From assembly GCA_944376295.1 (NCBI GenBank), contig CALWCE010000003.1:10723-74722 (forward strand): 64,000 bases of DNA. The letters run 5' to 3'. The notes beneath the pieces were generated by a model. The model worked only from the letters and a program-made list of their open reading frames with translations. It was not told the origin of the DNA and made no database searches. How positions within the stretch are numbered: position 1 is the first letter of the stretch; every line of letters begins with the position of its first letter. Positions 14,244 through 51,644 of this stretch are shown piece after piece. This DNA comes from an uncultured Clostridia bacterium. GTDB lineage: Bacteria > Bacillota > Clostridia > Christensenellales > Borkfalkiaceae. The position numbers and the translations under genes were made by a program.

Positions 14244-14416
14244 ATCCTCTCCACTCCTTGATTATATCATATCGGGCGGGCGCCCGTCAACAAGGGGGGT
14301 AGAATTTTTTAGAAGTAATATTTTTAGGGGAAATATGGCGCCGCCGTGCGCAAAACAGTGCGGCATCGCTGCACTTGTGACGTAAAAATTTTTTTCGGAA
14401 AAATCACACGGAACCC

Positions 14417-35573: not shown

Positions 35574-36035
35574 ATGGCTGAAAACAGAATAGAGGATCAT
35601 CGAAGCAGGCGGTATATTCGCATTACCGATGAGGATAGTTGGCTCATGATCGATGAGATCGCAAGGACAGACTACTATAGTAAGAGCTTCAATAAGATCA
35701 TCAACGACGCGCTCTTTTATGGCTTGCCGATTTTATATGATAAAGTGATCGGAGCGGAAAATATCGCGGAACAGGAAAAGCGAGAGTTGACCGGCGGTGA
35801 AGAGGTGACGGCGGGGAATTTGCGGTTTTACGCACTGCTTGTAAGACTTCTTCGTGAAGTCATCCTCAATGTGACGATCAATAAATCCTTGCTTTCAACG
35901 CTATGCAATGAAAAGGAATGCGAATTGCGCAGAGAGAAAATAACGGCAGAGAAGTTTGCGGGCGGATATTATTCGGATACGCCGGACTATCTTGTGAGGT
36001 ATGAAGCAGAGGAGCTAAAGAAGTTAAGGAAATGA
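35574..36035 (+). CDS. Putative relaxosome accessory protein (MobC/RHH-like)
   Basis: 153 aa from the ATG at 35574 (RRYIRITDEDSWLMIDEIAR...). It lies immediately upstream of the relaxase and overlaps it (ATGA). Confidence 0.4.
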   Translation: MAENRIEDHRSRRYIRITDEDSWLMIDEIARTDYYSKSFNKIINDALFYGLPILYDKVIGAENIAEQEKRELTGGEEVTAGNLRFYALLVRLLREVILNVTINKSLLSTLCNEKECELRREKITAEKFAGGYYSDTPDYLVRYEAEELKKLRK

Positions 36036-37339
36036 GCAATCAACCCATCGTTTTCAATATCCAATACACCCCTTACAAACTGCCCAAAAACGCAACGGCG
36101 GCAGAACGCGAGCAGCACGCATCGGACAGGGCATTCTTCGATATGACGGGAGGGAAGAATATTTTTGACTATATCACGACAGAGGAAAAATGTACAGGCG
36201 GCTATTCGATGTTTGATTACCTACAAAAGAACACGGGCGTATTTAATGAAACGGGGATGCTGCCCGAGCGAGACATTGCAAGCATGAAAGCGCGGCTGAA
36301 GGAGAACCGCGGCGTGATCTGGCACGGCTTCGTGTCGCTTGGGGCGGAAGATTCCTATAAGATCGATTCCCCGGAGAAATGTATCCGCATGGTCAAGCAG
36401 ATTTTTCCGACATTTTTCAGGGATATGAATCTTAAACCCCAGAATGTCGATTTGATGTGCGCATTGCATTTGGATAAGCCTCATCATCTGCATTGTCACT
36501 TTGTTTTTTGGGAAAAAGAGCCGAAGTTCAAAGACGCAAAGAACGGGCAGCTTGTATATCGGCGGCAAGGAAAGGTGCGGAAAGATGCAATCGATAAAAT
36601 GTTTGTACGTCTTGGGTTATTTTTCAGCGATGACAAAGATGTGCTGTATAAAAGTCGTGACGAGGCGATCCGTGACTTAAAAGAACTGCTCGGAGCAAAG
36701 GCGTTTGTCTATAAGCCGGAAGACGTGAAAAAAGAGATTCTCGCGCTTGCGCGGGATCTGCCCAAAAGCGGGCGCGTCACTTACGGCAGCAAGGACATGG
36801 AGCCGTTCCGTGCGCGGGTGGACAAGATCGTGCAGATGCTGCTTTTGACGGACAGGCGTGCGCGTATGGCGGACAGGCGGTTTCACCGCGCGCTTGCAGG
36901 GCGCGAGAGGGAGATCGCGAACATTTGCGGGCAGCCGTTTGCCTATTCCAATAAAAATATCTCGCCCGAAAAAATGGAGAGCGAACTCCCGAAGTACCAC
37001 AATGTGATCGACGGGAAAAATATTCGCATCATCGACGAAATCAAAGCGGACTACAAGCGTCGGCAGGGGAATCTCGTCGTGAATCTTGCAAAATCCATCA
37101 AGCCCGAATGCTACGAGAATAAACGCAAGAGAAAAGTCAACGATCATGCTTTGAAGAGAACGCTTGCTATTTCTAAGAAAAAGATTGGCGGTTCGTTCAA
37201 AGAATTTTTGAATTCGTTCGGGGCAGAGTGCGAGTATATCGAGCGTGACTACTGCCGTAGGTTGCAGGAGATCGAGGAGGAGATGAAGCGCGAAAAAGAA
37301 AAGGATGACGCCGCAGAACACGACGGCGAAACCAAGTAA
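36032..37339 (+). CDS. Conjugative relaxase (MobL/MOBP-like)
   Basis: 435 aa with a histidine triad-like motif HLDKPHHLHCHFVFWE. It sits between the accessory protein and the coupling protein. Confidence 0.6.
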   Translation: MSNQPIVFNIQYTPYKLPKNATAAEREQHASDRAFFDMTGGKNIFDYITTEEKCTGGYSMFDYLQKNTGVFNETGMLPERDIASMKARLKENRGVIWHGFVSLGAEDSYKIDSPEKCIRMVKQIFPTFFRDMNLKPQNVDLMCALHLDKPHHLHCHFVFWEKEPKFKDAKNGQLVYRRQGKVRKDAIDKMFVRLGLFFSDDKDVLYKSRDEAIRDLKELLGAKAFVYKPEDVKKEILALARDLPKSGRVTYGSKDMEPFRARVDKIVQMLLLTDRRARMADRRFHRALAGREREIANICGQPFAYSNKNISPEKMESELPKYHNVIDGKNIRIIDEIKADYKRRQGNLVVNLAKSIKPECYENKRKRKVNDHALKRTLAISKKKIGGSFKEFLNSFGAECEYIERDYCRRLQEIEEEMKREKEKDDAAEHDGETK

Positions 37340-37563
37340 ACGGAGGTGTAACAGTGAAATGACTTTAATTAATAATTGCGGCGCAAGCAAAATCACACTT
37401 TTGCACAGCGCAACTCAATTTGTGCATACTTGCGCCTCAGCGGTGGAAATGCCAGCGATTATAAAATTGTGTGCCCTTAAATATCGCGGGCAGGGAGGCA
37501 GCGCCTCCAAAAATCACGGAATTTCGCAGGCGCATCAAGCCGAGAAATTCGTGAGGAGTTTGT

Positions 37564-39768
37564 ATGAAATTAAAACGACATAGGAAGACCAAATCGTGGA
37601 AGGGTGGGATAGGGGTAGGAGTATTTGTTGCCGTCTGTGTGAGCGTGCTCGTGGCGTTCCTGTTTGCGTTGGCGGGATGTGATCTTGCGGGGATATTCGG
37701 GAACAGGAATTACTGGCTCTCGGTCGGGGTCGCAAACGGGCTGCTGCTCGTCGCGTTCCTTCTGATGTACCGCATCGACGCGCAGAACGTTGCGCTCCAT
37801 GAGAACGATTTGGAAGATACCGAGTGGCTGACGACGAAGAAACTTAAAAAGCTCAAAGAGTTTGCGGTCACGACTTGGGAGAAGATGCCGGAGCACGACG
37901 ACGAGATCGTCATCGGCGCGGAGAAGAAAGGAAAGGAATTGGAGATCATCTCCACGAGCGCCCTGCACGCGCTCATCGTCGGTACGACGGGCAGCGGCAA
38001 AACGACGGGCTTTGTCGATCAGAATATCGCCGTTTTAGGCAAGAGCAAAGGGAAACCGAGCCTTATCATCGCCGACCCCAAAAAGGAGCTGTACGAAAAG
38101 CACGCAAAGCAGTTAGAAAGCGAGGGCTATAAAATCTCCACGCTCGATCTCAGAGAGCCGTATTCGTCGGCACGATGGAACCCCATGCAGGTGCTCATCC
38201 GCCGTATCCGTCAGGTGAAAGAGTTGCAGAACGACCTAAAACAGGAGGACGGCAAATACTACGCCTGCGGCGAGGTGTTCTTATCCCACCGTGACGCCCG
38301 CACAAGGGTGCAGGAGTTAAAGGACGAGATCTTCGAGAACGCGATGGATTTGGTATATACGCTCTGTCCCGTTCAAAACAAAGACCAGCCCACATGGGAA
38401 GAGGGTGCGCGTAACCTCATCTTCGGTCTGGTGCTTGCCTTCTGCGAGGATGTCATTTCGGGCAAGATGGACGAAAAGCAGTTGCAGCTCTTTAACGTGT
38501 ACCATAATGTGACCAAATATTGCTCTGAGGACACGACGGCATTAAAGCAATACCTGCTCGAAGGCAGGGATGAGTTTTCAAAGGTGAGGGGGCTTGTCAA
38601 CACGGTACTCATCACGAGCGACAAGACATTGACGAGCTATCTTTCCGAAGTCAACAGCTATATGCAGCAGCTTTCGGACGACGGCATTCTTTCGATGACG
38701 AGCGAAAATGACATCGACATAGCAAACATGGACGAAAGTCCGAACGCGCTGTTTGTCATCGTGCCGGACGAGCGGTTCACGCGCCACCGATTTGTTACGC
38801 TGTTTCTCACGCAGACCTATAAGGAGCTGGTCGAAAAGGCGAATACCAATCTTCGTAAGAAGCAGACGGATACGGCGATCTTAAAACGCCGCGCCTATTA
38901 CATTTTGGACGAGTTTGCAAATCTTCCGAAGATGGAGAACATCGAAGGCATGGTCACGGTCGGGCGTTCAAGGGGTATCCGGTATCTGTTCGTGTTACAG
39001 AGCTTTTCACAGTTGAATGCCAAGTACGGGAAAGACGTTGCGGATATTCTGAAGTCCAACTGCAATGTAAAGTTGTTTATCGGCTCGGACGATGCGGAGA
39101 CGAGGAAAGAGTTTTCCGAACTTTGCGGGCAGAAGAAGGTCAAGAGCTTTTCGGTGAATACAAGCGCGGAAAACCCTGCGTCCTCGAATACGGGCGCGAG
39201 CAATCAGCCGCTCATAACGCCGGGGATGCTCGAGCGTTTGAACGGCGACGAAAAGGGCGACGCGATTGTTTCGGTGAGAGGCTATGAGCCGATCTGGACG
39301 CGGTTCACATCGTCGTATGAGCTAAAACACATTTATTTTGCGGCGGGTAAGGCGGATATTGGGAAGCGCGAAGCGCGGCTTTTCGATAAGAGCCAATATG
39401 TGTTCGATATTTGCGGCGGAAGTCAGGCAGAGGAAGAAGAAAGACAGCTCATCGCGATCGAGCAGCGGGAGCGGGAAGGAACAGGGAGTGCGCCGAACAT
39501 TGCCGAGCTCGACGCGGCATGGTCAGAGCAGCGCGAAGCGATCCGGAAGAAGGTGAGCTCTGCTGCGGCGGTCCTCGGCGATGAGGACGCTCAGGCGTTG
39601 GTGGAAGCAAAGCTGGAGAATAAGCAGACGCTGATCGCGCTCCTCTTGCAGGAGTACACCGATTTTTCTGTCCGCCAAAAGCTCAACTCGCTCTCGGCAT
39701 ATCTGAGCGAAGCGCTCCCCAAACTGCTCGAATTGCAGGAAAAGGCAAAACAATATCCCGCCGCATGA
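37564..39768 (+). CDS. Type IV coupling protein (VirD4/TraG family)
   Basis: Two N-terminal TM helices, Walker A GTTGSGKT, Walker B YYILDEFANL, and TVGRSRGIRYLFVLQSFSQL. Confidence 0.85.
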   Translation: MKLKRHRKTKSWKGGIGVGVFVAVCVSVLVAFLFALAGCDLAGIFGNRNYWLSVGVANGLLLVAFLLMYRIDAQNVALHENDLEDTEWLTTKKLKKLKEFAVTTWEKMPEHDDEIVIGAEKKGKELEIISTSALHALIVGTTGSGKTTGFVDQNIAVLGKSKGKPSLIIADPKKELYEKHAKQLESEGYKISTLDLREPYSSARWNPMQVLIRRIRQVKELQNDLKQEDGKYYACGEVFLSHRDARTRVQELKDEIFENAMDLVYTLCPVQNKDQPTWEEGARNLIFGLVLAFCEDVISGKMDEKQLQLFNVYHNVTKYCSEDTTALKQYLLEGRDEFSKVRGLVNTVLITSDKTLTSYLSEVNSYMQQLSDDGILSMTSENDIDIANMDESPNALFVIVPDERFTRHRFVTLFLTQTYKELVEKANTNLRKKQTDTAILKRRAYYILDEFANLPKMENIEGMVTVGRSRGIRYLFVLQSFSQLNAKYGKDVADILKSNCNVKLFIGSDDAETRKEFSELCGQKKVKSFSVNTSAENPASSNTGASNQPLITPGMLERLNGDEKGDAIVSVRGYEPIWTRFTSSYELKHIYFAAGKADIGKREARLFDKSQYVFDICGGSQAEEEERQLIAIEQREREGTGSAPNIAELDAAWSEQREAIRKKVSSAAAVLGDEDAQALVEAKLENKQTLIALLLQEYTDFSVRQKLNSLSAYLSEALPKLLELQEKAKQYPAA

Positions 39769-39776
39769 GCGGCGGG
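39757..39776. terminator. Hairpin between convergent genes
   Basis: CCCGCCGC-atga-GCGGCGGG, a perfect 8-bp stem spanning the T4CP stop codon. Confidence 0.4.
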
Positions 39777-39781
39777 ATGGG

Positions 39782-40183: not shown

Positions 40184-40189
40184 TACCTC

Positions 40190-40432: not shown

Positions 40433-40548
40433 GCCATATACCTCCGATATGATTTGGTAAAGAAAGTAAAGAAATCTTTACCTTATCTATAGTATATGCT
40501 ACATCGATCGATTTGTCAAGAGGGAAAAAGAAAAAAAGGAGGGATGAT

Positions 40549-41883
40549 TTGAAAAAGTTTTTATTGGCAGGACTGATGGTATGCGGCATGCTCGTGCCCG
40601 TGGCACTGATGGGGTGTGCCGCATCGGAAAGCAATGCGGATCCACCCGCGGCATGGGAAGAGACGGCAGGCGTTGTCCGGAGCGTGGCGGAAGGGGTATC
40701 GCTGCAAGCTGCGGCGCTAGCGAACATATCCTGTGACCATACCTTTGCCGCGGTGCAGACGGTGGAGCCGTCCTGTACGGAGCAGGGTTATACCCTATAC
40801 GCCTGCTCGCAGTGCGGGCAGAGCTATATGGACGACTTTACCCCCGCGAAGGGGCATACGATGCGAGAGATCGTTGTGGAGCCGACTTGCACGCATCAGG
40901 GGTACACGACGCACTTTTGCACCGTCTGCGGCTATGAGTATTCAGACGCTTACAAGGAGGAGCGCGGGCATAAGTATGTTTCGGAAAAGATAGACCCCAC
41001 CTGCACGCAGGCGGGCTGCACGCTGCATACCTGTTCGGTCTGCGGCGACAGCTATCGGGACGATTACCGCGAAGCGCTCGGGCATGCGTATGCCGAAGAG
41101 ACGTTTGCCCCGACCTGCACGAGCGAAGGTTACACGAAACAGACTTGTTCAAGGTGCGGCGACGAGGTAACGATGGACTATGTGCCCGCACTCGGGCATA
41201 CATACACCCAAACGACGATCGCGCCGACGTGCGTGAGCTACGGATATACCGAACACCTCTGCTCCGTCTGCGGGGATCGGTACGTTACCGACTATACCGA
41301 GGCAAAGGGGCATACCTTTCTCGACGTGCTCGTCGAGGCGACGCCCGAGAGCATCGGCTATACGCGGCACATCTGCATCGTCTGCGACTACAGCTATATC
41401 TCCGACTATGTGACGAGCGGCGATACGGGCTATATCGAACCGCCCGGACAAGACCATGCGCATGCGTATGCGTTCTATGTGCAGGATGCGCCCGAGGAGA
41501 AGTACTTCATCGCGCGCTATGTCTGTGACTGCGGTGCAAGCGCCGTGGGCAATGTGTCGGTCATGGCGGTCGGCGAAGACGGCGCGGCGGTACAACTTTC
41601 TGTCAACGAATACGGGCAGGTGGACTATTCCCGCCTTTCGGGAAGCTATACGGTGCGCATCACGGACGGAGCGGGGGAACTTCTCAAAGAGTTTTCCGTG
41701 ACGGCGGAAGGGAAATCGCCCGAGGACAAGCCGCAGGAGCCGCCCGAAGAGACGGAACAGGGAAAAGAGGGGCGCAGTACGGGGACGACGGTCCTGCTGC
41801 TGTTCATCCTCATACTACTCGCCGCAGGCGGTGCCGCGGCATGGCTTCTTATCAGAAGGAAGAAAAAGAAAGATCAAAAGTAA
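40549..41883 (+). CDS. Cys3His-repeat surface lipoprotein with C-terminal TM anchor
   Basis: TTG 40549 lies 6 nt after a GGAGG RBS and gives (M)KKFLLAGLMVCGMLVPVALMGC (lipobox). There are five full and one degenerate ~38-aa repeats CTxxGYTxxxCxxCG..Y..x9-11..GH. The C-terminal TM is LLLFILILLAAGGAAAWLLI followed by RRKKKK. Confidence 0.7.
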   Translation: MKKFLLAGLMVCGMLVPVALMGCAASESNADPPAAWEETAGVVRSVAEGVSLQAAALANISCDHTFAAVQTVEPSCTEQGYTLYACSQCGQSYMDDFTPAKGHTMREIVVEPTCTHQGYTTHFCTVCGYEYSDAYKEERGHKYVSEKIDPTCTQAGCTLHTCSVCGDSYRDDYREALGHAYAEETFAPTCTSEGYTKQTCSRCGDEVTMDYVPALGHTYTQTTIAPTCVSYGYTEHLCSVCGDRYVTDYTEAKGHTFLDVLVEATPESIGYTRHICIVCDYSYISDYVTSGDTGYIEPPGQDHAHAYAFYVQDAPEEKYFIARYVCDCGASAVGNVSVMAVGEDGAAVQLSVNEYGQVDYSRLSGSYTVRITDGAGELLKEFSVTAEGKSPEDKPQEPPEETEQGKEGRSTGTTVLLLFILILLAAGGAAAWLLIRRKKKKDQK

Positions 41884-41899
41884 AGGGAGGATATAAGAT

Positions 41900-42196
41900 A
41901 TGAATTTTAACTTACTTACGGAAACCGGACTGGACAGTAATCTTGCCGAGATCGTGGCAAAATTGCAGAGCCTGATGGATAGCTTCTGGGTCTATATCGT
42001 TATCGCGCTCGCGGCAGTCGTCGTTATCTGGGGCGCGTATATCGGCATCAAGATCGCCATTGCACATAGGAACGAAGAGAAGATCAACGCCAAAGACATG
42101 GTGAAGCAGCTCATCATCGGCATCGTCATTATCTTCGTCGTGGCGATGGGCGCACCGCTTCTCATCAACGGCTTGTCCGCTTGGGTCGGCGCGTAA
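41900..42196 (+). CDS. VirB2/TrbC-like pilin-type protein (two-TM hairpin)
   Basis: 98 aa with two hydrophobic helices separated by HRNEEKINAKD. A strong RBS is present, and the gene is the first of the T4SS block. Confidence 0.6.
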   Translation: MNFNLLTETGLDSNLAEIVAKLQSLMDSFWVYIVIALAAVVVIWGAYIGIKIAIAHRNEEKINAKDMVKQLIIGIVIIFVVAMGAPLLINGLSAWVGA

Positions 42197-42214
42197 AAAC
42201 GGAAGTCTGAACAG

Positions 42215-42241
42215 AAAGGCGGCGCGTTGTTTGCCGCCTTT
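42215..42241 (+). terminator. Intra-operon terminator/attenuator after the pilin-like gene
   Basis: AAAGGCGGC-9 nt loop-GCCGCCTTT followed by CATTTTC. Confidence 0.4.
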
Positions 42242-42267
42242 CATTTTCAGATAATGGAGGAGGTTAA

Positions 42268-43488
42268 ATGCTGATATTTTTACAGGAGATAGGCTTACAG
42301 CTTTTTCTATGGCTGTTGCAGCTTGTGGACGGGCTGATGGACTTATTTTCCGCCATGACGGGTATTGCCGCGGTCAACTACCACGGGCAGCAAGTCAATC
42401 TCATCGAGTTCATCGTCGGCGACTCCGCCATCGGCACCGTCTTTTGGTGTATCTTTATCACGGCTGTGGGGCTCACCTGTATCTTTGCGATCGCGGGGCT
42501 CATCAAGAATATGATCTCCGGCAACCGCGGCGTGGCGACGGTCGTGGGGAAGTTCTTTCTCGCGCTTTTGGGAACGATGGCAATGCTGGCGGTCGTTATC
42601 TTGGGTATCCTCATCGCCAACGGCTCGCTGCAACTTCTGGCGCGCATCTTTCAAGTGGAGAATACGACCAAGCTCTCGAACGCCATTTTCAATGCCTGCG
42701 TCGGTGATTGGCTGAACGGGTATTCGGCGGGGGATGTGGACGTGACGTCGCTCACGGTGCGCGAGATCCTGGGTGGTTACGATACGGCGCTGTTCGGGAT
42801 CTGGCCTACGTCCTGGAAGGGGAACGGCATGGTCGACCCGAATACGTTCCTGTATCTTCCCTCGCTCGTAGCGGGCATCGCGCTCTGCGTGGCGCTCGTG
42901 ATCGCCGTTCTCAATCTCGCAAAGCGGGTATATGAGATCGTTTTTACTTACTTCATGATGCCAATCGCCATGTCGACCTTGCCGCTTGACGATGGGGCGC
43001 GGTTCAAAAACTGGCGGGAGCTCTTCGTCTCTAAACTCATCCTCGCCTATGGCGCGGTGTTCGCGGTCAATATCTTTGCGCTCGTTCTGCCGCTCATCAA
43101 TGCGGTGCATCTGGACGGTGTCAACGGCTTCGGAAACGCCATGTTCACGATCTTCATGATCGTGGGCGGCGCGATGCTCATCCCCGCAGGGCAGACGTTG
43201 TTTGCCCGTCTGTTCGGGCAGGGCGACGATATGCGTGCCGGCGGCGGATGGCTCAGAAGCGCGTTCTACGGCGGACGCATTGCAAGCGCCATGACGGTAG
43301 GGCTTGCCGCGAAAGGCATCAAGGCAATCGCTTCCCGCAAAAAGGGAGACAGCGGCAACGGAAACAGCGGCGATTCGAGCGACGGTTCCGACGATTCGGG
43401 CGACAAATATACGGAGGACAGCGCCGAGAGCACGGACGCCGCAGACGAGAGCACTGCGGCGCAAACGCAAGGAGGAGAAAGCAGTTGA
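42268..43488 (+). CDS. Polytopic membrane protein, VirB6/TrbL-like
   Basis: 406 aa with at least 6 TM helices and an acidic Ser/Gly/Asp-rich tail. It sits between the pilin-like and VirB4-like genes. Confidence 0.55.
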   Translation: MLIFLQEIGLQLFLWLLQLVDGLMDLFSAMTGIAAVNYHGQQVNLIEFIVGDSAIGTVFWCIFITAVGLTCIFAIAGLIKNMISGNRGVATVVGKFFLALLGTMAMLAVVILGILIANGSLQLLARIFQVENTTKLSNAIFNACVGDWLNGYSAGDVDVTSLTVREILGGYDTALFGIWPTSWKGNGMVDPNTFLYLPSLVAGIALCVALVIAVLNLAKRVYEIVFTYFMMPIAMSTLPLDDGARFKNWRELFVSKLILAYGAVFAVNIFALVLPLINAVHLDGVNGFGNAMFTIFMIVGGAMLIPAGQTLFARLFGQGDDMRAGGGWLRSAFYGGRIASAMTVGLAAKGIKAIASRKKGDSGNGNSGDSSDGSDDSGDKYTEDSAESTDAADESTAAQTQGGESS

Positions 43489-46115
43489 GAATTATCCCTA
43501 AAAAAATTAAAGTGAAGAATACGGTATGGAAGTGCTATTCCATGACGGATGTGATTGTGGCGCTGTTTGTGTTTGCGCTCATCTTCATCGCAGTCACGGC
43601 TGGGAACTGGGCGCTTGCGATCATTATGGGACTTATAGCGGTCGTCATGTTCATGCCCATGCCGGACGGCATTTTCTATACCTGCATCTTTGAAAACGTA
43701 AAATTTCTGTTCGCTAAAAAGCGATATACGGCGGATGCAAAGAACCCGAAAGAGAATATTGACACGCTCATCGGGCTGAAAGAGATCAAGACAAACGGCT
43801 TGCTCGCATACAGCGGCGGAATGTTCGGCAGAGTCATCAAGGTGGGGCAAAAGAACTTCGGCATTGAGGACGTGGTGCAGCAGAACATCGACATCGGCTA
43901 CATAGCAAACGCCTTAAAAATTCTCGATGCCAACCAAAGCGCGGACATCATCAAGATCGACCGCCCTGTAAATCTGGACGGTTTCTCGGAGGAACTGTTT
44001 GCTCGTCTTTCTGCATTGCGGGAAGAAGAATCGCAGACGCGGGAGATCCGACAGGACATTTTGCAGGAACGCATCGACCGTATCGACAAGCTCAACAATA
44101 TCCGCAAGCAGTACTTGTCCGACTATTATATTATAGTGTATGGCAGGAACGAACTTGATTTAGAGAGCGCGGCGATCAATATCGCGGGCGAGGTCGGAAA
44201 GAGCGGACTGTCTACAAAACTTCTCGGTATGCGCGAGGCGGCGGTGTTCTTAAAATACAGTTTTTCTCGCAATTTTGACGAGAGAGAGGAAAAGGACATT
44301 GCCGATGAGGATTTGCTCGCGTGGGTAAAGCCGAAAGAAGTGGTATTCCACAGCAATAGGTTCGTCATCGACGGAACGGAAGCGAGCGTGCTTACGGTCG
44401 CGGACTATCCACTGCGCGTCAAAAACGCATGGGGAGCAAAGCTGTTCAATATTCCCAACACGAAGGTCGTGATGCACGTTCGACCCGTGGATAAGTACAA
44501 GGCGATCCGCCGTATCGACAAGTGCATCGGCGAGATGGCGACCAAGCAGATCGTGGCGGAAAAAGCGAGCGAAGCGAACAGCGCGGAAACGCATCAGGAA
44601 ACGATGAACGCGCTTTTGGATAGTTTGCAGACGGAAAACGAAAGCCTTTTGGACGTTACCTTGACCGTTACTGCCTATAACTATCTCAAAAATGAGAATT
44701 ACAAAAAGGCTGTGCGTAGAGCTTTGCTCACGGAAAACTTCAAACCGTCCACGCTGTACGGCTTGCAGATCGAAGGGTTTAAGACTGCGGCGGTATCGCC
44801 CGTAAGCACGCTTAAAAACCATGAGCGAGGTATCAACAGTTCAAGCCTCGCGGCGGTGTTCCCGTTTGTGAGGACTTGTGTTCTCGATGATGGGGGTATC
44901 CTTCTCGGCGAAAATAAGACGAACGGCTATCCGTTTATTCTCAATTTGTGGAAGCGCGGCAATCTTTATCAAAATAGCAACGCCATGATCATCGGCAAGT
45001 CGGGCTCGGGCAAATCGTATTTTTTGAAAACGCTTATCGCCAACGAATGGGCGAACGGCACGAGAGTCATCGTGTTAGACCCCGAAGCCGAATACCTCAC
45101 GCTCACCCGCAATTTGAGCGGCAACATCATTGATGTGGGCAACGCAAAGGAGGGGCGCATCAATCCGTTCCATATCTATAAGATCCTCACGGAGGACGGC
45201 ACGCCTGCCGACCCGAAGGTCACGTTCAATACGCACCTCAAGATGCTTGAATCGTTTTTCAAGATCGTGCTTGCGGATGCGCCCGTGGACGTCATTGAAC
45301 TCATCAATAACCTTGTGGTGGAAACATACGAGAAAATGGGTATCACGGAAAATACCGACTGCTCGGCGTTCCCTGCGGACTACTTTCCGCTGTTTTCGGA
45401 CTTGCTCGAAACGTTGCAGAGTAAGAACAGGGAAAGCATAGATGAGCTTACCAAGAGGGATATGCGCACGGCGGAGCTGTATCTCAAAAAGTTTGTGAGC
45501 GGGCGGTATTCGGACATCTGGAACGCGCCGTCCACGTTAAAGACGGACGCAGACCTTATAGATTTCGATTTCCAGAGCCTGTTTGCGAATAAGAACAATA
45601 CGGTGGCGAACGCGCAGATGCTGCTCATTTTCCGATTCATCGAGCAGGAAGTCATCAACGCGAGAGAGAAGAACAAGGGCGGAGCAAACCTTCATACGCT
45701 CATCATTGCAGACGAAGCGCACCTCTACATAGACCCTAAATTCCCCATCGCATTGGACTTCTTCTATTCGATGTCAAAGCGTATCCGCAAGTACAACGGC
45801 TCGTTCGTTCCCGCCACGCAGAATATCGCCGATTGGAATGCGAACGAAGAACTGCGCGGCAAGACCTCGGCGATCATCAAGAACAGTCAGTATAGCTTTA
45901 TCTTCAAACTGTCCGCGCCCGACATGAAAGACGTTTTGGATATTTACAAGGCGGGCGACAGCTTCAACGACGAGGAGCAGCGCATGATCATCTCGGCGGT
46001 TACGGGACAGACGTTCTTTGTGGGAAGCACGGAGCTTCGCAACTGCATTCTCGTCAAGGCGGGGGACTATACGCAGTCGCTCTTTGAGGAGAGAAAGGAG
46101 GAGGAAACGAATTGA
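43485..46115 (+). CDS. VirB4-family conjugation ATPase with N-terminal VirB3-like TM segment
   Basis: The probable TTG start at 43485 lies 8 nt after a GGAGGAG RBS and overlaps the upstream stop. The N-terminal TM pair is VIVALFVFALIFIAV..LAIIMGLIAVVMF. Walker A GKSGSGKS, Walker B LIIADEAHLY. Confidence 0.85.
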   Translation: MRIIPKKIKVKNTVWKCYSMTDVIVALFVFALIFIAVTAGNWALAIIMGLIAVVMFMPMPDGIFYTCIFENVKFLFAKKRYTADAKNPKENIDTLIGLKEIKTNGLLAYSGGMFGRVIKVGQKNFGIEDVVQQNIDIGYIANALKILDANQSADIIKIDRPVNLDGFSEELFARLSALREEESQTREIRQDILQERIDRIDKLNNIRKQYLSDYYIIVYGRNELDLESAAINIAGEVGKSGLSTKLLGMREAAVFLKYSFSRNFDEREEKDIADEDLLAWVKPKEVVFHSNRFVIDGTEASVLTVADYPLRVKNAWGAKLFNIPNTKVVMHVRPVDKYKAIRRIDKCIGEMATKQIVAEKASEANSAETHQETMNALLDSLQTENESLLDVTLTVTAYNYLKNENYKKAVRRALLTENFKPSTLYGLQIEGFKTAAVSPVSTLKNHERGINSSSLAAVFPFVRTCVLDDGGILLGENKTNGYPFILNLWKRGNLYQNSNAMIIGKSGSGKSYFLKTLIANEWANGTRVIVLDPEAEYLTLTRNLSGNIIDVGNAKEGRINPFHIYKILTEDGTPADPKVTFNTHLKMLESFFKIVLADAPVDVIELINNLVVETYEKMGITENTDCSAFPADYFPLFSDLLETLQSKNRESIDELTKRDMRTAELYLKKFVSGRYSDIWNAPSTLKTDADLIDFDFQSLFANKNNTVANAQMLLIFRFIEQEVINAREKNKGGANLHTLIIADEAHLYIDPKFPIALDFFYSMSKRIRKYNGSFVPATQNIADWNANEELRGKTSAIIKNSQYSFIFKLSAPDMKDVLDIYKAGDSFNDEEQRMIISAVTGQTFFVGSTELRNCILVKAGDYTQSLFEERKEEETN

Positions 46116-48505
46116 GAGGTAAAATAAAAAGAACAACGTGGCTTGTGAGCTTTGCGGCAATGCTCTGTTTGCTGTTGCCGTTTTGGTTTCCGAGAGGGGA
46201 AACAGTATCCGCCGCTACCACCCCGAGTTACACCGTAGCCTTTGACTACACGCATACATATACCTACGGTTCGGGCGCCGGTACGCGCAAAGAGACATCG
46301 GGCGACAACAATGTTTATTCTGCCGTTGTGCAGAGTGGTTCGAATACGACGGCGACCATCTCCGTTATTCTGTATGGGAGTGGGGCATCGGGGAATGCGT
46401 ATCTTTCCAATGGCGGCACGATCAAGTCGGATACGGTGAATATCCAGATCTCAGGCTATAACGAGCGTAGGATCACGGTGACTGACGCATCGGGAAGAAC
46501 AGTGGGGAGCGGCAGCTCTTCCGTACATCTGAGTGGTCTTTCCGACGGAAGTTATTCGGTGTCTGTACAGTTTGGCTTTTTTGCCTGGACGATCAATTCG
46601 CGTGCGGGCGCCAGTGTTACGACGACGGGTTCCTTTAGCTTTACCGTTGCGGCGGAAGAACACGTCCATCAGTACGGTAAGCGCGTTGTGGCTCCCACTT
46701 GCACAGCAAGCGGTTATACCCAATATACCTGTAAGACTTGCGGGTACTCTTATACCGGGGATCGTACGTCGGCTTTAGGGCATAATTATACATCCACAAC
46801 GAGCGGAGCGACTTGCACGTCAGGCGGTACCGTGCTTTATACCTGTACCCGCTGCGGGGACAGCTATACGAAGACGACTTCCGCGCTCGGACATGATTAT
46901 GAGAGCATGCTGACTGCTGCCACTTGTACGGAAGAGGGGTATATCAAATATGTCTGTACTCGCTGCGGGGATAGCTATACCGAAGATATTCCCGCAACGG
47001 GGCATAGTTATCAGAGCAAGACGGTCTCTCCGACCTGCACATCGGGCGGTTATAGCCGCCATACCTGTACCCGCTGCGGAGACAGCTATACGACTAACCG
47101 CACGCAAGCGCTCGGGCATAGCTACACGGTATCGTCCGAGCGCGATCCGACCTGTACGAGCGGGTCGGTGACGGTCTATCGCTGTACGCGCTGCGGCAGC
47201 ACTTACTCGGACGAGGATTCCGACGCTCTGGGTCACAGCTATGACGCGGATGTCGTCAATCCCACCTGCACGGCGGGCGGCTATACGGTGTTCTCGTGCA
47301 GGCGATGCAGCTACAGCTATACAGGCAATGCGACGGCGGCTTTAGGGCATAGCTATAAAGCTGCGACGACGCCCTCTTCCTGTACGACGGAAGGATATAC
47401 GACCTACGAATGCATCCGCTGCGGCGCAAGTTATACCGACAGTCCCACGCAGGCGACAGGGCATAGCTATGTCGCCGAGATCGTGTCATCCACCTGTACG
47501 GAGCGGGGCTATACCGTCTATACTTGCAGCAAGTGCGGCGACAGCTATCGCACCAATGAAACGCAGCCGCTGGGGCATAGCTATGTCATCTCCACGGAAG
47601 GGGCGACCTGTACGGAGAGCGGCGTTTCCGTATATACCTGCACCCGCTGCGGGTCGAGCTACGAGGGCTGGCTGACGGCACCGCTCGGGCATAACTATGT
47701 AGCGGAGCAGAGACCCGCAGGCTGTACGGAGGAGGGCGGCACCGTCTACACCTGTACGCGATGCGGAGACGGTTATAACGGAGAGCCGACGCCGCCTCTC
47801 GGCCATGCGTATATCTCCAAAGCCGTTGCCGCGACGTGTGAAGAAGGGGGATATGTCCTCCACACTTGCATCCGCTGCGGGGACAGCTATCAAGACAACG
47901 AGACGCAGCTGCTCGGGCATAATTTCGTGACGGAGGAACGCCCGCCTTCCTGCACCGAGGGCAGCCGCACCGTCTATATCTGTCAGGTATGCGGCTTTGA
48001 AAAGACGGAGGAGACGGGGACTTACCCGACGGGGCACGACTATACTTCCACCGTGCTTCGCGCGGCGACCTGTACGCAGGCGGGGGAGCGGAAATTTGTC
48101 TGCGACAAGTGCGGAGAAGAATATATCGAGACCATCCCGGCGACGGGCCACACTTATGCGATCACCGATTCAATCTCTCAGAACGGCGTGACTGTCCGTA
48201 CCTATACCTGTTCGGTCTGCGGCGATACTTTCGCGCAGGAGCTCGGCGATCAGTACGAGGAAGTGGCGTCTTACATCGAATATCTGTTCGAGCAATACCG
48301 CCCGTATATGATTTGGGTCTTTCTCGCCACGGCGGGCGTATGGAGCATCGTGATGGGGGTGTGCTTCGCCATTGCCCAAAAACATGAGGAGAAGGAGAAA
48401 GCCAAGCGCATGATCTTCAACTACCTCATCGGGCTTGTCGTCATCTTCTGTATCCTCGTCGCCGCCCCGCTCCTCGTCCGCGGCATCGCTGCACTTGTAA
48501 CGTAA
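46112..48505 (+). CDS. Secreted Cys3His-repeat protein (13 full + 1 degenerate repeat) ending in a VirB2-like two-TM pilin module
   Basis: The TTG start overlaps the VirB4 stop (TTGA). There is a signal peptide, a ~150-aa beta-rich domain, and repeats at ~46664-48240. The last ~70 aa align ungapped with the 98-aa pilin-like protein (25/69 identical). Confidence 0.75.
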   Translation: MRGKIKRTTWLVSFAAMLCLLLPFWFPRGETVSAATTPSYTVAFDYTHTYTYGSGAGTRKETSGDNNVYSAVVQSGSNTTATISVILYGSGASGNAYLSNGGTIKSDTVNIQISGYNERRITVTDASGRTVGSGSSSVHLSGLSDGSYSVSVQFGFFAWTINSRAGASVTTTGSFSFTVAAEEHVHQYGKRVVAPTCTASGYTQYTCKTCGYSYTGDRTSALGHNYTSTTSGATCTSGGTVLYTCTRCGDSYTKTTSALGHDYESMLTAATCTEEGYIKYVCTRCGDSYTEDIPATGHSYQSKTVSPTCTSGGYSRHTCTRCGDSYTTNRTQALGHSYTVSSERDPTCTSGSVTVYRCTRCGSTYSDEDSDALGHSYDADVVNPTCTAGGYTVFSCRRCSYSYTGNATAALGHSYKAATTPSSCTTEGYTTYECIRCGASYTDSPTQATGHSYVAEIVSSTCTERGYTVYTCSKCGDSYRTNETQPLGHSYVISTEGATCTESGVSVYTCTRCGSSYEGWLTAPLGHNYVAEQRPAGCTEEGGTVYTCTRCGDGYNGEPTPPLGHAYISKAVAATCEEGGYVLHTCIRCGDSYQDNETQLLGHNFVTEERPPSCTEGSRTVYICQVCGFEKTEETGTYPTGHDYTSTVLRAATCTQAGERKFVCDKCGEEYIETIPATGHTYAITDSISQNGVTVRTYTCSVCGDTFAQELGDQYEEVASYIEYLFEQYRPYMIWVFLATAGVWSIVMGVCFAIAQKHEEKEKAKRMIFNYLIGLVVIFCILVAAPLLVRGIAALVT

Positions 48506-48631
48506 AAAAAATGGAACTTACCTTTGCTCAGCCCGTAAAAATTTTTTCGGAAAAATGCTCCGAACCCCTTGACAAACGGGAGAAAATGTGATATTCGTAT
48601 TAACACGAAGCAAGAAAAAGGAGGCGCAGTC

Positions 48632-48985
48632 ATGAACGCACAGGAGATCATTGCCAAAGCAGACAGGGGAGAGGGGCTGACCGAAGAGGAGATCAAAGTC
48701 TATCGGCAAGCAGTCAAGCCTGTCAAGCACACCTACGGTAAGTACGGAACGCTGAAGCGGCAGTATTTGGAAGAAAGGGGTATCGACTGGACGATTGCCG
48801 ATCTTCCCGAATATCTGCACGGCATCGACCGTCAGGCGGACGAGTTGTATGAAATCATGTATGCGAAGCTCTCCAAAGATGAACGTTACAAACGGACGGG
48901 CAACTTCATGGAGGACTACCGCAGGCAGACGGAGATACAGAAGCTCATAGAGGAGGAGATTCTTTCCGAGCTTGTGTATGTCTGA
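48632..48985 (+). CDS. tnpV: TnpV-family protein
   Basis: 117 aa from the ATG at 48632 (GGAGG RBS). It shows the same family pattern as 14477..14830. Confidence 0.7.
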   Translation: MNAQEIIAKADRGEGLTEEEIKVYRQAVKPVKHTYGKYGTLKRQYLEERGIDWTIADLPEYLHGIDRQADELYEIMYAKLSKDERYKRTGNFMEDYRRQTEIQKLIEEEILSELVYV

Positions 48986-49127
48986 GCCAACATTCATCCC
49001 GCAATACGGCGTCAGGGTTACGGGTCTGCTCGGTTACATACGTTTAAGTATGCGCCCTCGCAGCATTCCGCCCCTTCCTTGTCTTGCGGGCGACTGTTGA
49101 CTCATAGAAAAAACGGGAGGTTACAAT

Positions 49128-49250
49128 ATGAAAGCTGTTTTAAGGATCGGGAAGGGCTTGCTGAAAGTTTTGTTCATGGGCGTCGTGATGATCGGGACTT
49201 GCGTCATGAACTTCATCGGCGCGATCATCTGCGCGATAGCGGGAAACTGA
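49128..49250 (+). CDS. Small hydrophobic peptide (40 aa)
   Basis: MKAVLRIGKGLLKVLFMGVVMIGTCVMNFIGAIICAIAGN with a GGGAGG RBS. It is a paralogue of 14971..15090. Confidence 0.4.
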   Translation: MKAVLRIGKGLLKVLFMGVVMIGTCVMNFIGAIICAIAGN

Positions 49251-49260
49251 GAGGTGGAGC

Positions 49261-49497
49261 ATGGAGCGTAAACCGGATACGCCCGTTCGCAAGAGCCGCA
49301 GGAAGTATGAGGAGCGGAACAAAGACGAGCGGAAGGAAAAGAACAAGGTGTGGGGAACGAGCATTGACCGCCAATATGCGAACGAGATAGACGAGTTCCT
49401 CGCAAGGCATGATCTTACAAAGGTGGAACTGATCGTCGCGGGGTATCAAGCCCTGCTCGATCACTACGGCCCGAAGGAAGAACAGAATAAGCAATAA
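49261..49497 (+). CDS. Putative ribbon-helix-helix DNA-binding protein
   Basis: 78 aa. The C-terminal half is identical to the relic copy and the N-terminal half is diverged. Confidence 0.5.
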   Translation: MERKPDTPVRKSRRKYEERNKDERKEKNKVWGTSIDRQYANEIDEFLARHDLTKVELIVAGYQALLDHYGPKEEQNKQ

Positions 49498-49677
49498 GTT
49501 TGAGAGCGCAAGGACTATGGCCCTTGCGCTCCTGCTTTTATCAAGACGATAAAATACCATGCCGAACGGCATAAGGAAGAAAACGACATCGGGAAGATGG
49601 AGCGTAACGGACTTATGCCGCCGCGCTTCGTCTTTCCTTATCATATAAAACAAACAGATGAAACGGGAGGCGTTAGA

Positions 49678-49857
49678 ATGTTGCGAAGTATAAAAAGAGT
49701 ATTCGATATGGTCAAGCAGGAAGATCCGGATACGGCGATCACCGTACATACCATCCGTATGTGGTGTAAGGAGGGCAAGATAAAATACTTGACCGCCGGC
49801 AACAAAATTCTGGTCGATGTGCAAAGCCTGATGGACTATATCGCTATCAAGGAGTAA
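49678..49857 (+). CDS. xis: Excisionase (HTH, excisionase family)
   Basis: 59 aa from the ATG at 49678 (GGGAGG RBS 7 nt upstream). ITVHTIRMWCKEGKIKYLTAGNKILVDVQSL is a typical MerR-like excisionase HTH. It lies directly upstream of int. Confidence 0.7.
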   Translation: MLRSIKRVFDMVKQEDPDTAITVHTIRMWCKEGKIKYLTAGNKILVDVQSLMDYIAIKE

Positions 49858-49863
49858 CACACT

Positions 49864-51288
49864 ATGGCTTATTTCAAAATCACACAGAACAAAAAAGGAG
49901 AGCTTCAAGCAAAAATACAGGTCAGCGGCAAAGACTTATCCACAGGGAAAAGCAAGGTCTTTACCAAGCGCGTCTATAATACCGACGAATTGACCGAGGC
50001 TAAATTCCGCAAGCAGGTCGAAAAGACTGCCATCGCCTTTGAAGAGGAGGTTTCGCGCGCCTATCAGGACGGCAAAACGCAGCTCCGCTCAAAGGTGCTG
50101 ACTTTTTCCGAACTCATGCAGGAATGGAAGGCAAATATCAAAGCCGGACTTTCCGTCAACTACTATGAACGTGCCGAAAAGGTCGAAAAGATATTCGGCG
50201 AGTTTCTGGAACAGAATGGGCTGGCCGACAAGCCCATCTCTGCCATCACGGTACGCGACGTGCAGAGGTTCCTGTCGTCGTTCACCCTTTCGGGGTATAA
50301 AAGCGCGCCCAAAGCACGATTAAAAAAGCCGCTCCCCAAGCAAATGAACTTTCGGCTGATGGCGCGGGAAAATGTCATTGACCGCTGCGCCTCGTATAAC
50401 CTTAATAAAAAGGGAGCGAACATCGCAAAGGAAACGGCGGAAACGCTCTGCGACCGCTGTGGGCTTGACTATGACGAATACTTTGAAACGGTCGTCATTG
50501 AAAAACCCTATGCCGCCGAAACAATCAAAGGCTATCGCCGTATCCTGCGCGCGTTGTTCAACGAAGCTGTCCGCTATGAATGGATCGCCAAGAACCCCGT
50601 ATGCGCAACGAAGGTGGGCGCGGAAAAAGGCAATACCTCTTTGCGCCCCGTTGCCGAAAAGGAAGTGTTTACCGTAAATGAAGCGCGCGCTTTCCTGCGA
50701 AAGCTGGATGAGGACATTCCCGACGACGAAATGCACAAGAAAGTCATCTTGAAGTTTATCCTTTTGACGAGCGTCCGTAACGGTGAGATGTGCGGTCTGA
50801 AATGGTCGGACATCGACTTTGACAAAAAAGTCGTACACATACGGCGTAACAGGCTGTATTCCAAACAATTCGGCTACTATGAAAAGACGCCCAAGACAAA
50901 GACGTCCGTCCGCGACATTCCTTTGACGGATGTGCTGATAGACGATTTGAAGAAGTACATGGGCTGGTTCAGGCTCGCCGACGAGGAGTTTGACAGCCGT
51001 CTTGACGAAACCTATCTCGCCGTAAATGTATATCGGCAGCCGCTGTACCCGCAGTCCATCGGGCAATGGCTGACCTTCTATGAGCGCAAATGGGACATGA
51101 AACACGTCACTTGTCACGGCTTGCGGCATACCTATTGCAGCCTGCTTCTGGCGCAGAACGTGCCTATACAGACAGTGAGCAAATACATGGGACACAGCGA
51201 TTCGACCGTCACATTGAAAGTGTACAGCCACTTTATCCCTGATACGCAGGGCATCGCGGTGAACGCTCTGAACCGCCTGACAGAGTAA
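49864..51288 (+). CDS. int: Tyrosine recombinase / integrase (Tn916-like, with N-terminal arm-binding domain)
   Basis: 474 aa with the C-terminal catalytic signature HGLRHTYCSLLL...GHSDSTVTLKVYSH (R..HxxR..Y). Confidence 0.9.
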   Translation: MAYFKITQNKKGELQAKIQVSGKDLSTGKSKVFTKRVYNTDELTEAKFRKQVEKTAIAFEEEVSRAYQDGKTQLRSKVLTFSELMQEWKANIKAGLSVNYYERAEKVEKIFGEFLEQNGLADKPISAITVRDVQRFLSSFTLSGYKSAPKARLKKPLPKQMNFRLMARENVIDRCASYNLNKKGANIAKETAETLCDRCGLDYDEYFETVVIEKPYAAETIKGYRRILRALFNEAVRYEWIAKNPVCATKVGAEKGNTSLRPVAEKEVFTVNEARAFLRKLDEDIPDDEMHKKVILKFILLTSVRNGEMCGLKWSDIDFDKKVVHIRRNRLYSKQFGYYEKTPKTKTSVRDIPLTDVLIDDLKKYMGWFRLADEEFDSRLDETYLAVNVYRQPLYPQSIGQWLTFYERKWDMKHVTCHGLRHTYCSLLLAQNVPIQTVSKYMGHSDSTVTLKVYSHFIPDTQGIAVNALNRLTE

Positions 51289-51428: not shown

Positions 51429-51503
51429 TGGTACTCCCGGCGGGAATCGAACCCACAACGGCCCCTTAGGAGGGGGCTGTTATATCCATTTAACTACGGA
51501 AGC
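51429..51503 (-). tRNA. tRNA-Arg (anticodon CCU), CCA encoded
   Basis: Manual fold of the reverse complement, GCTTCCGTAGTTAAATGGATATAACAGCCCCCTCCTAAGGGGCCGTTGTGGGTTCGATTCCCGCCGGGAGTACCA. It has a 7-bp acceptor stem (two G.U pairs), a D arm GTTA/TAAC, an anticodon stem GCCCC/GGGGC with loop CT-CCT-AA, and a T arm GTGGG-TTCGATT-CCCGC. Confidence 0.9.
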
Positions 51504-51644
51504 ATATTTTATTATCCCGCTCGGGAATACTTCGTCGCTGCGCTCCTCGTGCCACCGCAAGCGGTGGGGCGAACCCGGAATGATCTTTTATGCCTCTATG
51601 AAGAAGCATATTTTATTATCCCGCCGAAAATACGTCGCCGCGCT
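51499..51644. repeat. Direct repeat of the tRNA 5' end plus upstream flank
   Basis: gaagcatattttattatcccgc occurs at 51499-51520 and 51603-51624 (22/22). Weaker similarity continues ~20 nt (aatac..cgtcgcYgcgct). Confidence 0.8.

Follow-up and report, generated by a model that had tools for sequence, protein, structure and literature searches.

A pilin-like hairpin module joined to a Cys3His-repeat ectodomain in the transfer operon of an integrative conjugative element of gut Clostridia

The fusion gene and its stand-alone paralogue

The stretch of DNA analysed here, hereafter referred to as the window, comprises 64,000 nucleotides of contig CALWCE010000003.1 (assembly GCA_944376295.1) from an uncultured Clostridia bacterium of the Borkfalkiaceae. 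To judge by its genes, the window carries an integrative conjugative element (ICE) that is inserted beside a tRNA-Arg gene and encodes a type IV secretion system (T4SS) of the MPF_FATA type, closest to the machinery of the Mycoplasma ICEs. The gene with which this report is concerned follows the VirB4 gene in the transfer operon of this element: located at 46112..48505 on the + strand, it encodes a predicted secreted stalk protein of 797 amino acids (aa) that ends in a pilin-like hairpin, and the same operon encodes a paralogue of that hairpin as a stand-alone protein of 98 aa with two transmembrane (TM) segments (41900..42196, + strand). A very common family of gut-Clostridia ICEs carries this module, with a conserved gene of the Pfam family PF18895 and a paralogue that bears the stalk. 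The gene had been singled out in a preliminary description made from the letters of the window, and the fate of its claims is given below where the relevant results appear.

The fusion gene is a single intact open reading frame (ORF), read in one uninterrupted frame. Its TTG start codon (46112-46114) overlaps the stop codon TGA of the VirB4 gene (46113-46115; tTGA, a 4-nt overlap), the sequence AGGAGG lies about 7 nt 5' of the TTG, and in the homologues, too, the frame opens at the corresponding residue, in an ATGA overlap. Both the frame and the overlaps in the homologues thus bear out what the preliminary description had read, namely a single 797-aa ORF with a TTGA overlap with virB4, and the overlapping stop and start codons indicate that the gene is translationally coupled to VirB4. 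A promoter and terminator scan of window positions 36000-49200 gave nothing above shuffle expectation on the + strand.

Four parts can be recognized along the protein. Residues 1-35 (46112..46216, + strand) have the hydropathy of a signal peptide, with a basic n-region (RGKIKR), a hydrophobic stretch at 8-27 and the ending ...VSA/ATT, and the same N-terminal pattern recurs in the fusion homologues. The N-terminal domain that follows, referred to below as the tip (approximately residues 36-182; 46217..46657, + strand), is modeled by AlphaFold2 as a beta-sandwich over approximately residues 37-180 with a predicted local distance difference test (pLDDT) score of 92-98, after which the model continues into beta-hairpin repeats. 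These are the 14 tandem repeats of about 38 aa that form the predicted stalk (46664..48256, + strand); they follow the pattern H-x10-C-x9-C-x2-C, resemble zinc-ribbon beta-hairpins, and contribute 14 CxxC motifs, one about every 38 aa, between residues 207 and 700, the 41 cysteines of the ectodomain corresponding to 13 x 3 + 2, with the last repeat lacking its first cysteine. The signal peptide, beta-rich domain and 14 Cys3His repeats of the preliminary description were therefore all recovered, by hydropathy, AlphaFold2 and motif count. The C-terminal part is the pilin-like module (residues 713-797; 48248..48502, + strand), which consists of an acidic amphipathic helix, TM1 (732-756), the loop QKHEEKEKAKRM and TM2 (764-797). 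The C-terminus of the fusion protein lacks an LPXTG sorting signal, the only two LPXTG-like matches being 'IPATG' sequences that both lie within the repeats, and a Pfam scan of the protein returned no match to a polymer-adhesin domain or any other adhesin domain.

The relationship between the module and the 98-aa protein is gapless. The preliminary description had counted 25/69 identical residues; the absence of gaps holds, and BLASTP puts the identities at 25/65 (0 gaps, E=1e-9). It had also proposed that the likeness exceeds generic TM composition, and this withstood a comparison in which TM1, loop and TM2 were shuffled separately, so that the composition of each was kept: the Smith-Waterman score of the real pair is 135, the shuffles average 37.5 +/- 8.3 with a maximum of 82, and none of the 5000 reaches the real value. 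When the two window sequences are aligned with five other stand-alone relatives and eight other fused modules, both paralogue classes run together without gaps over about 85 aa, beginning in the acidic amphipathic helix that precedes TM1 and ending at the C-terminus, and 11 columns, some of them in the pre-TM helix and the loop, are invariant across both classes. On the strength of these alignments the fused hairpin is a true paralogue of the operon's 98-aa protein. The gene for the latter was said to lie four genes upstream; in the order 98-aa protein, VirB6-like protein, VirB3/4 and fusion it lies three genes upstream.

Hydropathy places the charged loop QKHEEKEKAKRM between the hydrophobic segments 732-756 and 764-797, and AlphaFold2 models the hairpin (as a 99-aa fragment) with helices at fragment positions 13-59 (47 residues) and 63-98 (36 residues) and a turn of 3 residues between them; the mean pLDDT is 75. 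The net charge is -4 in the pre-TM helix, +2 in the loop and +1 in the tail, and the short acidic N-terminal tail of the 98-aa protein carries -3. By the positive-inside rule this distribution points to a module with its N-terminus outside, its loop inside and its C-terminus outside, so that the 700-aa ectodomain would sit where the 98-aa protein has its acidic N-tail. A possible kinship of the hairpin with TM1-2 of the operon's VirB6-like protein was considered and rejected, since hhalign gave a probability of 0.2% and the Smith-Waterman score, at 37, lies at the mean of the shuffles (38 +/- 6.6). The VirB6-like NCBIfam profiles Mbov_0396, MMCAP2_0566 and pLS20_p028 do match the 98-aa protein weakly, and these cross-matches look like TM composition.

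At the family level, the isolated module (residues 699-797) matches PF18895 (T4SS_pilin) with 30.5 bits (E=3.9e-7), above the gathering threshold of 26.6, while the full-length fusion protein scores 26.1 bits and falls just under it; PF18895 is matched by all 16 of the diverse fused modules that were compared. The 98-aa protein gives sub-cut-off matches, with 22.1 bits (E=1.6e-4) against PF18895 and 27.1 bits (E=2.4e-6) against NCBIfam NF045849 (Mbov_0395 pilin-like, cut-off 40 bits), a profile against which the fusion scores 15.2, and some of its near-identical relatives bear a precomputed PF18895 annotation. The two hydrophobic helices with a short charged loop and the position in a T4SS cluster beside virB4 that characterize PF18895 are present in the fusion. 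Its 797 aa do not fit the usual size of the family, which is stand-alone at about 70-120 aa, whereas the 98-aa paralogue does. PF18895, along with PF04956, has been used to call VirB2-like pilins in the T4SSs of Patescibacteria and other monoderms (PMC12102498). Neither the PF18895 membership of the module nor the presence of a pilin-like gene in the T4SS of a monoderm is new to the databases, since the family exists and NCBI names the Mollicutes relatives 'pilin-like'; the word 'pilin' is itself a prediction for PF18895 proteins.

The small protein is also abundant, with 1938 relatives, of which the top 120 listed are nearly all 87-100% identical. The version in the window is identical to a protein of Candidatus Borkfalkia faecavium, and a near-identical variant occurs on 488 contigs.

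Conservation of the fusion and of its repeats

The fusion is widespread, as a check proposed in the preliminary description has established. The module stands at the extreme C-terminus of 87 of the 120 best database relatives of the protein, which are 577-1094 aa long, carry 7-20 repeats and have 180-600 aa before the first repeat, and when genomes are taken at one per species, at least 146 of them encode it. The carriers are mostly Borkfalkia, Christensenellales and 'uncultured Clostridia' metagenome-assembled genomes from the chicken, rabbit, mouse and human gut. Searched exhaustively with a profile built on the two paralogue classes, 1.84 billion representatives yielded just 375 clusters at E<=1e-3, from which we take the module to be a compact subfamily. 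Among the 144 newly fetched and analysable sequences of the top 150 listed matches to this hidden Markov model, 64 are long repeat fusions, 48 are stand-alone proteins (<=150 aa), and about a dozen belong to a second fused architecture, in which a signal peptide and a non-Cys ectodomain of about 160 aa precede the module for a total of 277-288 aa (P0332, P0339, P0341 and similar proteins). In one locus of this second kind (L086), the gene at 9001-9849 lies between stand-alone ORFs of 106 and 99 aa, presumed by their size and position to be pilin-like, and a 401-aa gene that is presumed VirB6-like on the same grounds.

The coexistence of one bare and one ectodomain-bearing paralogue in the same T4SS operon, as the preliminary description had put it, is equally stable: all 38 loci in which the region of the stand-alone pilin is in view have the order type IV coupling protein (T4CP), repeat lipoprotein, pilin-like protein, VirB6-like protein, VirB4 and fusion. 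The stand-alone gene is present in one or two copies per locus, with tandem duplicates in L012, L055, L059 and L082. This breadth bears on the most prosaic explanation of the architecture, namely that separate genes for an ectodomain and a small pilin were joined here by an assembly or sequencing error. In its favor, the linker in Pumilibacter intestinalis CLA-AA-M10 (L070) is interrupted by an in-frame TAA (DQYE*V, 10055-10057), which may point to a pseudogene, to a gene naturally split in two or to an error of sequencing, and three other loci (L007, L065 and L020) have only short frames into the module. Against it, the frame is continuous in the window, the linker DQYEEV(S/A)xY(V/I)EYLF is conserved among the fusions, a frame of at least 480 codons runs uninterrupted into the module in 51 of the 55 loci with a defined 5' end, and the 87 fused proteins were assembled independently; we have rejected this explanation and regard it as extremely improbable. 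More generally, none of the three outcomes that the preliminary description had named as counter-evidence was found, be it a C-terminus without family similarity, genes joined by error, or a similarity at the level of shuffled sequences.

The repeats have a history of their own. In 886 repeats from 88 family members, extracted by anchoring on the CxxC pair so that the cysteines at 0 and +3 are given by the search itself, a cysteine occupies position -10 in 87% and a histidine position -21 in 70%, and the period that prevails is 38 aa. These frequencies make 'Cys3His' a feature of the family as a whole, whose members keep the register H(-21), C(-10), C(0), C(+3), and AlphaFold2 models the units as small beta-hairpins. 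Matches of the repeats to known zinc families (zf-CHY, the TFIIS/RPA12 ribbon and the SprT ribbon) are all sub-threshold, zf-CHY reaching 35 bits over the whole protein, yet with no single stretch that passes. The repeats are probably stabilized by zinc. At the DNA level they are 64-70% identical, and Tandem Repeats Finder detected no DNA-level array in the repeat region of the fusion. Because they have diverged to this extent, the repeats must be old, and are neither a recent expansion nor an assembly artefact.

Outside the family the repeat is common. In a search of 5.8 billion protein clusters, 8000 proteins were scored and 4801 of these reach E<=1e-5, most of them matching via the repeats, and thousands of secreted Clostridia proteins carry the repeat beside subtilase, cohesin, S-layer homology, glycoside-hydrolase and further domains (e.g. 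P0010, P0014, P0037 and P0072); since it is joined to so many unrelated secreted-protein domains, it seems to act as a generic extracellular spacer. Neither Pfam nor NCBIfam has a curated family for the 38-aa Cys3His repeat. Where database members have a source name at all, which is seldom, it is 'hypothetical protein', save for a single JGI mis-annotation as 'Elf1'.

Tip variability and the possible role of the fusion protein

The two ends of the fusion protein have evolved at very different rates. Among homologues the identity of the tip is about 30-50%, and that of the fused module 63-81%. A homologue search with the tip alone returned 9 matches, mostly fragments, so the tip allele of the window must be rare. 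The closest relative (P0001, 838 aa, which carries an extra inserted domain) is 92-100% identical over residues 285-797 in 50-residue windows and only 28-58% identical over residues 1-280. The same break is visible in the DNA, where window positions 46075-46954 have no similarity to the element of Ca. Borkfalkia faecavium (L006, 7486-8482), the flanks being 91-92% identical. The exchange covers only the first 280 residues, with flanks that are 91-100% identical, and from these comparisons the distal end of the fusion is replaced as a cassette that extends from the start codon to the third repeat (approximately the first 280 codons).

Medians over 37 species-level loci (L007-L085), each compared with the window proteins, place these values in the context of the operon. 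The stand-alone pilin-like protein is the most conserved of the transfer operon at 84%, followed by the T4CP at 75%, the fused module at 70%, the VirB6-like protein at 64%, VirB4 and the repeat lipoprotein at 42% each, and the tip domain at 36%. A constrained proximal module combined with a fast-changing, recombining tip is the pattern of a recognition domain carried on an assembly module. A separate observation from the same loci concerns VirB4, which is usually the most conserved T4SS gene and here has a median of just 42%; the combination of low VirB4 and high pilin identity suggests either mosaicism that extends from VirB4 to the tip or an unusually strong constraint on the small protein.

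Taken as a whole, the architecture, the hypervariability of the tip and the analogy with known adhesins suggest a role in adhesion. We put at about even the chances that the fusion protein serves the element as its adhesin for mating-pair formation, the hairpin joining the 98-aa subunits at a platform of VirB6-like protein and VirB4 in the role of a minor or tip subunit; that the two paralogues assemble together is suggested by analogy. The protein would be exported by the Sec system and anchored by its C-terminal hairpin with both termini outside, TM1 acting as the stop-transfer segment, the net-positive loop KHEEKEKAKR being kept in the cytoplasm, and TM2 re-inserting into the membrane. The rod of 14 Cys3His beta-hairpin repeats, plausibly long enough to span the cell wall, would hold the variable beta-sandwich at its far end, and the module would take the same site, or enter the same oligomer, as the 98-aa subunits at the VirB6-like/VirB4 platform. 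A variable partner-recognition tip would thereby be displayed beyond the wall and at the mouth of the DNA-translocation channel, and one polypeptide would unite the anchoring and polymerizing role of VirB2 with that of VirB5 or of an LPXTG adhesin such as PrgB.

A hypervariable tip can also be read in other ways. The protein might serve surface or entry exclusion, or self-recognition, its tip identifying cells that already hold a related element and blocking redundant mating: a hypervariable, cassette-exchanged tip resembles known determinants of exclusion specificity, and related elements do pile up side by side in the window, where the relic of a sibling is found at 14360-15542. The presence of a tandem or sibling element despite the intact gene speaks against such a role, as does the size of the protein, since the known exclusion proteins of Gram-positive bacteria, such as YddJ of ICEBs1 and PrgA of pCF10, are small lipoproteins or wall-anchored types and not 800-aa stalks. 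We consider exclusion improbable, more so than any other biological explanation discussed here.

Slightly better placed, and still quite unlikely in our judgment, is a purely structural function, in which the repeat rod would cross the wall as the scaffold or conduit of a minimal T4SS and would not bind a partner. In the ICE (approximately 17500-51400) no VirB1-like peptidoglycan hydrolase, VirB8-like gene or LPXTG adhesin was recognized, the host lineage being one that is expected to be walled. For the docked adhesin that we favor, the element offers no candidates beyond its only two large extracytoplasmic products, the fusion and a repeat lipoprotein. The latter is a predicted lipoprotein of 456 aa encoded by the first gene of the transfer module (40513..41883, + strand), with six Cys3His repeats, an Ig-like region, a weak CD1107-like C-terminus and a C-terminal TM segment followed by KKKK. 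The two proteins thus share rod repeats, possibly for one joint structure, and the range of 7-20 repeats among homologues is like that of a length-tuned spacer. A distal domain that is hypervariable and exchanged as a cassette suggests instead the recognition of a variable external target, and the best-matching T4SS, that of the Mollicutes ICEs, works without any wall at all (PMC6030558).

The most serious alternative, which we nevertheless hold to be unlikely, is that the hairpin was acquired by duplication of the nearby gene and is now an anchor only, displaying a free-standing adhesin or stalk for aggregation or for attachment to host or mucus, with no assembly with pilin-like subunits or the channel. 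Such a protein would be at home among the many non-T4SS proteins in which the repeat is a generic extracellular spacer, and polymerization of PF18895 proteins is not demonstrated (PMC12857230). This explanation also draws on a group of decayed elements found in many samples (L001-L003), in which an intact fusion gene for 860 aa (10001-12583 in L001) stands beside a 376-aa VirB4 remnant, the genes for relaxase, T4CP, lipoprotein, pilin and VirB6-like protein have been lost, and a serine recombinase replaces the tyrosine integrase. On the other side, the constraint on the module (63-81% identity, against 30-47% in the tip, and 11 invariant columns) exceeds the need of a simple anchor, and the position of the fusion and its overlap with VirB4 are strictly kept. 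The sister lipoprotein makes do with an ordinary single-TM anchor, which means that a plain anchor was available within the same operon, yet the hairpin was kept.

Several further observations weigh against the adhesin docked at the channel that we favor. The decayed elements imply that the protein may work, or at least persist, without pilin, VirB6-like protein and T4CP, and in P. intestinalis, the only cultured carrier seen, the nonsense codon falls between ectodomain and hairpin. The tip has no match to a known adhesive domain in Pfam or by Foldseek, which gave only generic Ig/FN3-like matches (E>=2e-3); its other matches to the model of the N-terminal part, in the PDB and a viral library, were a leucine-rich-repeat protein and an S-layer-homology-domain protein with low TM-scores (0.26-0.27), and none of them points to a function of the tip. 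The 456-aa lipoprotein may pair with the fusion or may be the actual adhesin. An appendage of 700 aa on every subunit cannot fit a compact filament, so the fusion would be a minor component at most. For PF18895 proteins no filament is on record, and the 2025 nomenclature review treats a pilus of such proteins as just a possibility (PMC12857230).

To these are added the comparisons with canonical VirB2/TrbC. None of the 16 modules matches PF04956, the canonical family, at E<=1. In hhalign, the module profile reaches a probability of 2.9% against six annotated VirB2/TrbC proteins, a set made up of five annotated sequences from plasmid records and a Ti VirB2 sequence that is 99% identical to an annotated virB2. 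Searched against PDB sequences, the module profile gives just chance TM matches to G-protein-coupled receptors and ninjurin (E>0.2) and no solved pilin. The modelled hairpin, a bare one of moderate confidence and hence a poor Foldseek query, finds nothing better than E=3.2 in the PDB and no pilin among the 50 matches shown. The 'VirB2-like' pilin module of the preliminary description consequently stands as far as the PF18895 match and the topology carry it, and the label has no further basis, since no link to canonical VirB2/TrbC appeared through PF04956, hhalign or Foldseek.

A bolder version of the proposal, which we think doubtful, is that the PF18895 hairpins build a short heteropolymeric stalk or pilus, with the 98-aa protein as its major subunit and the fusion as the first modular T4SS pilin, bearing an exchangeable adhesin on a wall-spanning Zn-ribbon rod. 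If true, this would overturn the textbook view that Gram-positive conjugation systems lack pilins and pili. In any form, the question bears on how Gram-positive T4SSs cross a thick wall and engage a recipient. Should the hairpin couple the stalk to the channel, a concrete model of mating-pair formation in monoderms would be at hand, and the exchange of tip cassettes would explain switches of host range in elements that move genes in the animal and human gut microbiota. On a conservative reading, the findings amount to an undescribed type of anchor for a bacterial surface protein, and to a widespread extracellular Cys3His repeat by which thousands of 'hypothetical proteins' become annotatable.

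Related systems and the surrounding element

In the open-access papers and preprints searched, we found neither the Cys3His repeat nor this ICE family described, and no T4SS pilin-like module with a large ectodomain attached to it. The fusion is not categorically new, because each of its parts has precedents and its function is inferred. The nearest precedent for the small protein lies in the PF18895 arrays of Patescibacteria (PMC12102498; PMC12857230), where two-helix hairpins are likewise encoded beside the VirB4, VirB6 and VirB3 genes of monoderm, MPF_FATA-related T4SSs; the loci related to that of the window resemble these arrays in having several paralogous copies per operon, tandem duplicates among them. 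The patescibacterial proteins are small stand-alone pilins of systems that usually lack a relaxase, whereas the present element is a Clostridia-type ICE with relaxase and T4CP in which one paralogue bears a 700-aa ectodomain. According to a 2025 review, VirB2 and VirB5 are absent from Gram-positive systems, Patescibacteria excepted, and sortase-anchored adhesins are used instead (PMC12857230).

For the machinery itself, the closest systems are the Mycoplasma ICEA and ICEB (Mbov_0395, Mbov_0396, Mbov_0397 and CDS14; PMC6030558), which supply the best NCBIfam matches of the VirB6-like protein and VirB4. They share with the present element a minimal T4SS, small TM proteins and a surface lipoprotein, and ICEA can dispense neither with its surface lipoprotein nor with the TM cluster CDS15-19 (PMC6030558). 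They differ in that their host has no wall, that no fusion of an ectodomain to a hairpin is reported there, and that ICEA integrates by a DDE transposase, in contrast to the tyrosine recombinase at a tRNA gene found here.

In Gram-negative bacteria, an adhesin on a conjugative pilus has a precedent in VirB5 on VirB2 pili (PMC12857230). The fusion and its paralogue resemble canonical VirB2/TrbC/TraA in the hairpin with a short basic loop, in the predicted position of both termini outside and in the neighborhood of VirB3, VirB4 and VirB6, and the labor would be divided in the proposed way between a polymerizing module and a distal adhesin. Here, however, there is no VirB5 homologue, adhesin and pilin paralogue would form one covalent chain in place of two separate proteins, and the module has no sequence, profile or Foldseek match to VirB2. 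A pilin module combined with an adhesive module is also the design of the FimH-type two-domain adhesins of chaperone-usher pili. Another example is PilB of Streptococcus sanguinis, a modular adhesin-bearing type IV pilin (PMC8179133). Such modular pilins are, as proposed here, minor or tip subunits encoded near a bare major subunit; their folds and assembly machines are unrelated, and the extra module is C-terminal in type IV pilins and N-terminal in the fusion.

From the side of the stalk, the protein compares with the PrgB-type LPXTG proteins and other fibrillar adhesins (PMC12857230; PMC9210967), with which it shares a signal peptide, a distal domain, a repeat stalk, a cell-proximal anchor and, in the PrgB type, its encoding by a conjugative element. 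It differs from these in having no LPXTG motif and no known adhesive domain, in its anchor, which is a pilin-like hairpin, and in its Cys3His stalk, which belongs to no Pfam family. Small two-TM proteins are known to be essential for conjugation in pIP501 (PMC9083827). TraB of that plasmid is, like the module, a small two-helix membrane hairpin of pilin-like topology encoded in a Gram-positive T4SS operon, and it is likewise not demonstrably related to VirB2; the likeness is one of topology. TraB differs in its cleaved signal peptide, and no paralogue with a fused ectodomain has been described for it (PMC9083827).

The remaining genes of the transfer region are those of a conjugative element of this kind. 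A MobL-type relaxase (36032..37339, + strand; PF18555, E=2.3e-8) and a VirD4/TraG-like T4CP (37564..39768, + strand; PF02534, E=1.6e-49) precede the lipoprotein gene. Downstream of the 98-aa gene lie those for a polytopic VirB6-like membrane protein of the MMCAP2_0566/Mbov_0396 family (42268..43488, + strand; NF045848, 169.8 bits with a cut-off of 90; NF045889, 89.3 with a cut-off of 70) and for a VirB4 ATPase with an N-terminal VirB3-like TM segment (43485..46115, + strand), which scores 573 bits against NF045975 (Mbov_0397; cut-off 590) over residues 82-946 of the maximal ORF. The VirB4 start is probably the TTG at 43485, which overlaps the stop codon of the VirB6-like gene in another TTGA. 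The T4CP gene is separated from those for the T4SS membrane proteins by a pair on the - strand (39782-40432), a PIN-domain toxin with a MazE/AbrB-type antitoxin, and this pair is not present in loci L004 and L005.

The right end of the element is formed by a tyrosine integrase (49864..51288, + strand) that adjoins tRNA-Arg(CCT) (51429-51503, - strand), with TnpV encoded between the transfer module and the integrase. Just past the integrase, a 40-nt direct repeat (51499-51538 / 51603-51641, 87.5% identity) starts at the edge of the tRNA-Arg(CCT) gene and may be related to the attachment site. Elsewhere the element encodes an ArdC-like protein and a DNA methylase, as well as an ORF of 3566 aa (18971-29671, + strand) that combines MutS domain I, an Eco57I-like methylase region, a SNF2/ResIII helicase and an NrS-1 polymerase helix-bundle domain, and that looks like multi-domain ICE cargo or an anti-restriction protein.

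The sibling element mentioned above has left its trace on the other side of the ICE. The preliminary description had recognized there a relic with the same C-terminal codons as the fusion gene (...GIAALVT*), and this is indeed present at 14360..14388 (+ strand), where the last eight codons and the stop codon of a sibling copy of the fusion are preserved with 96.6% identity to 48480-48508. The sibling's TnpV-side sequence continues over 14381-15542, a stretch of 1.2 kb that is 86% identical to 48534-49703, and past 15542 the remnant diverges into fragmentary ORFs (to about 17500), among them a thymidylate-kinase-like piece at 15436-15876.

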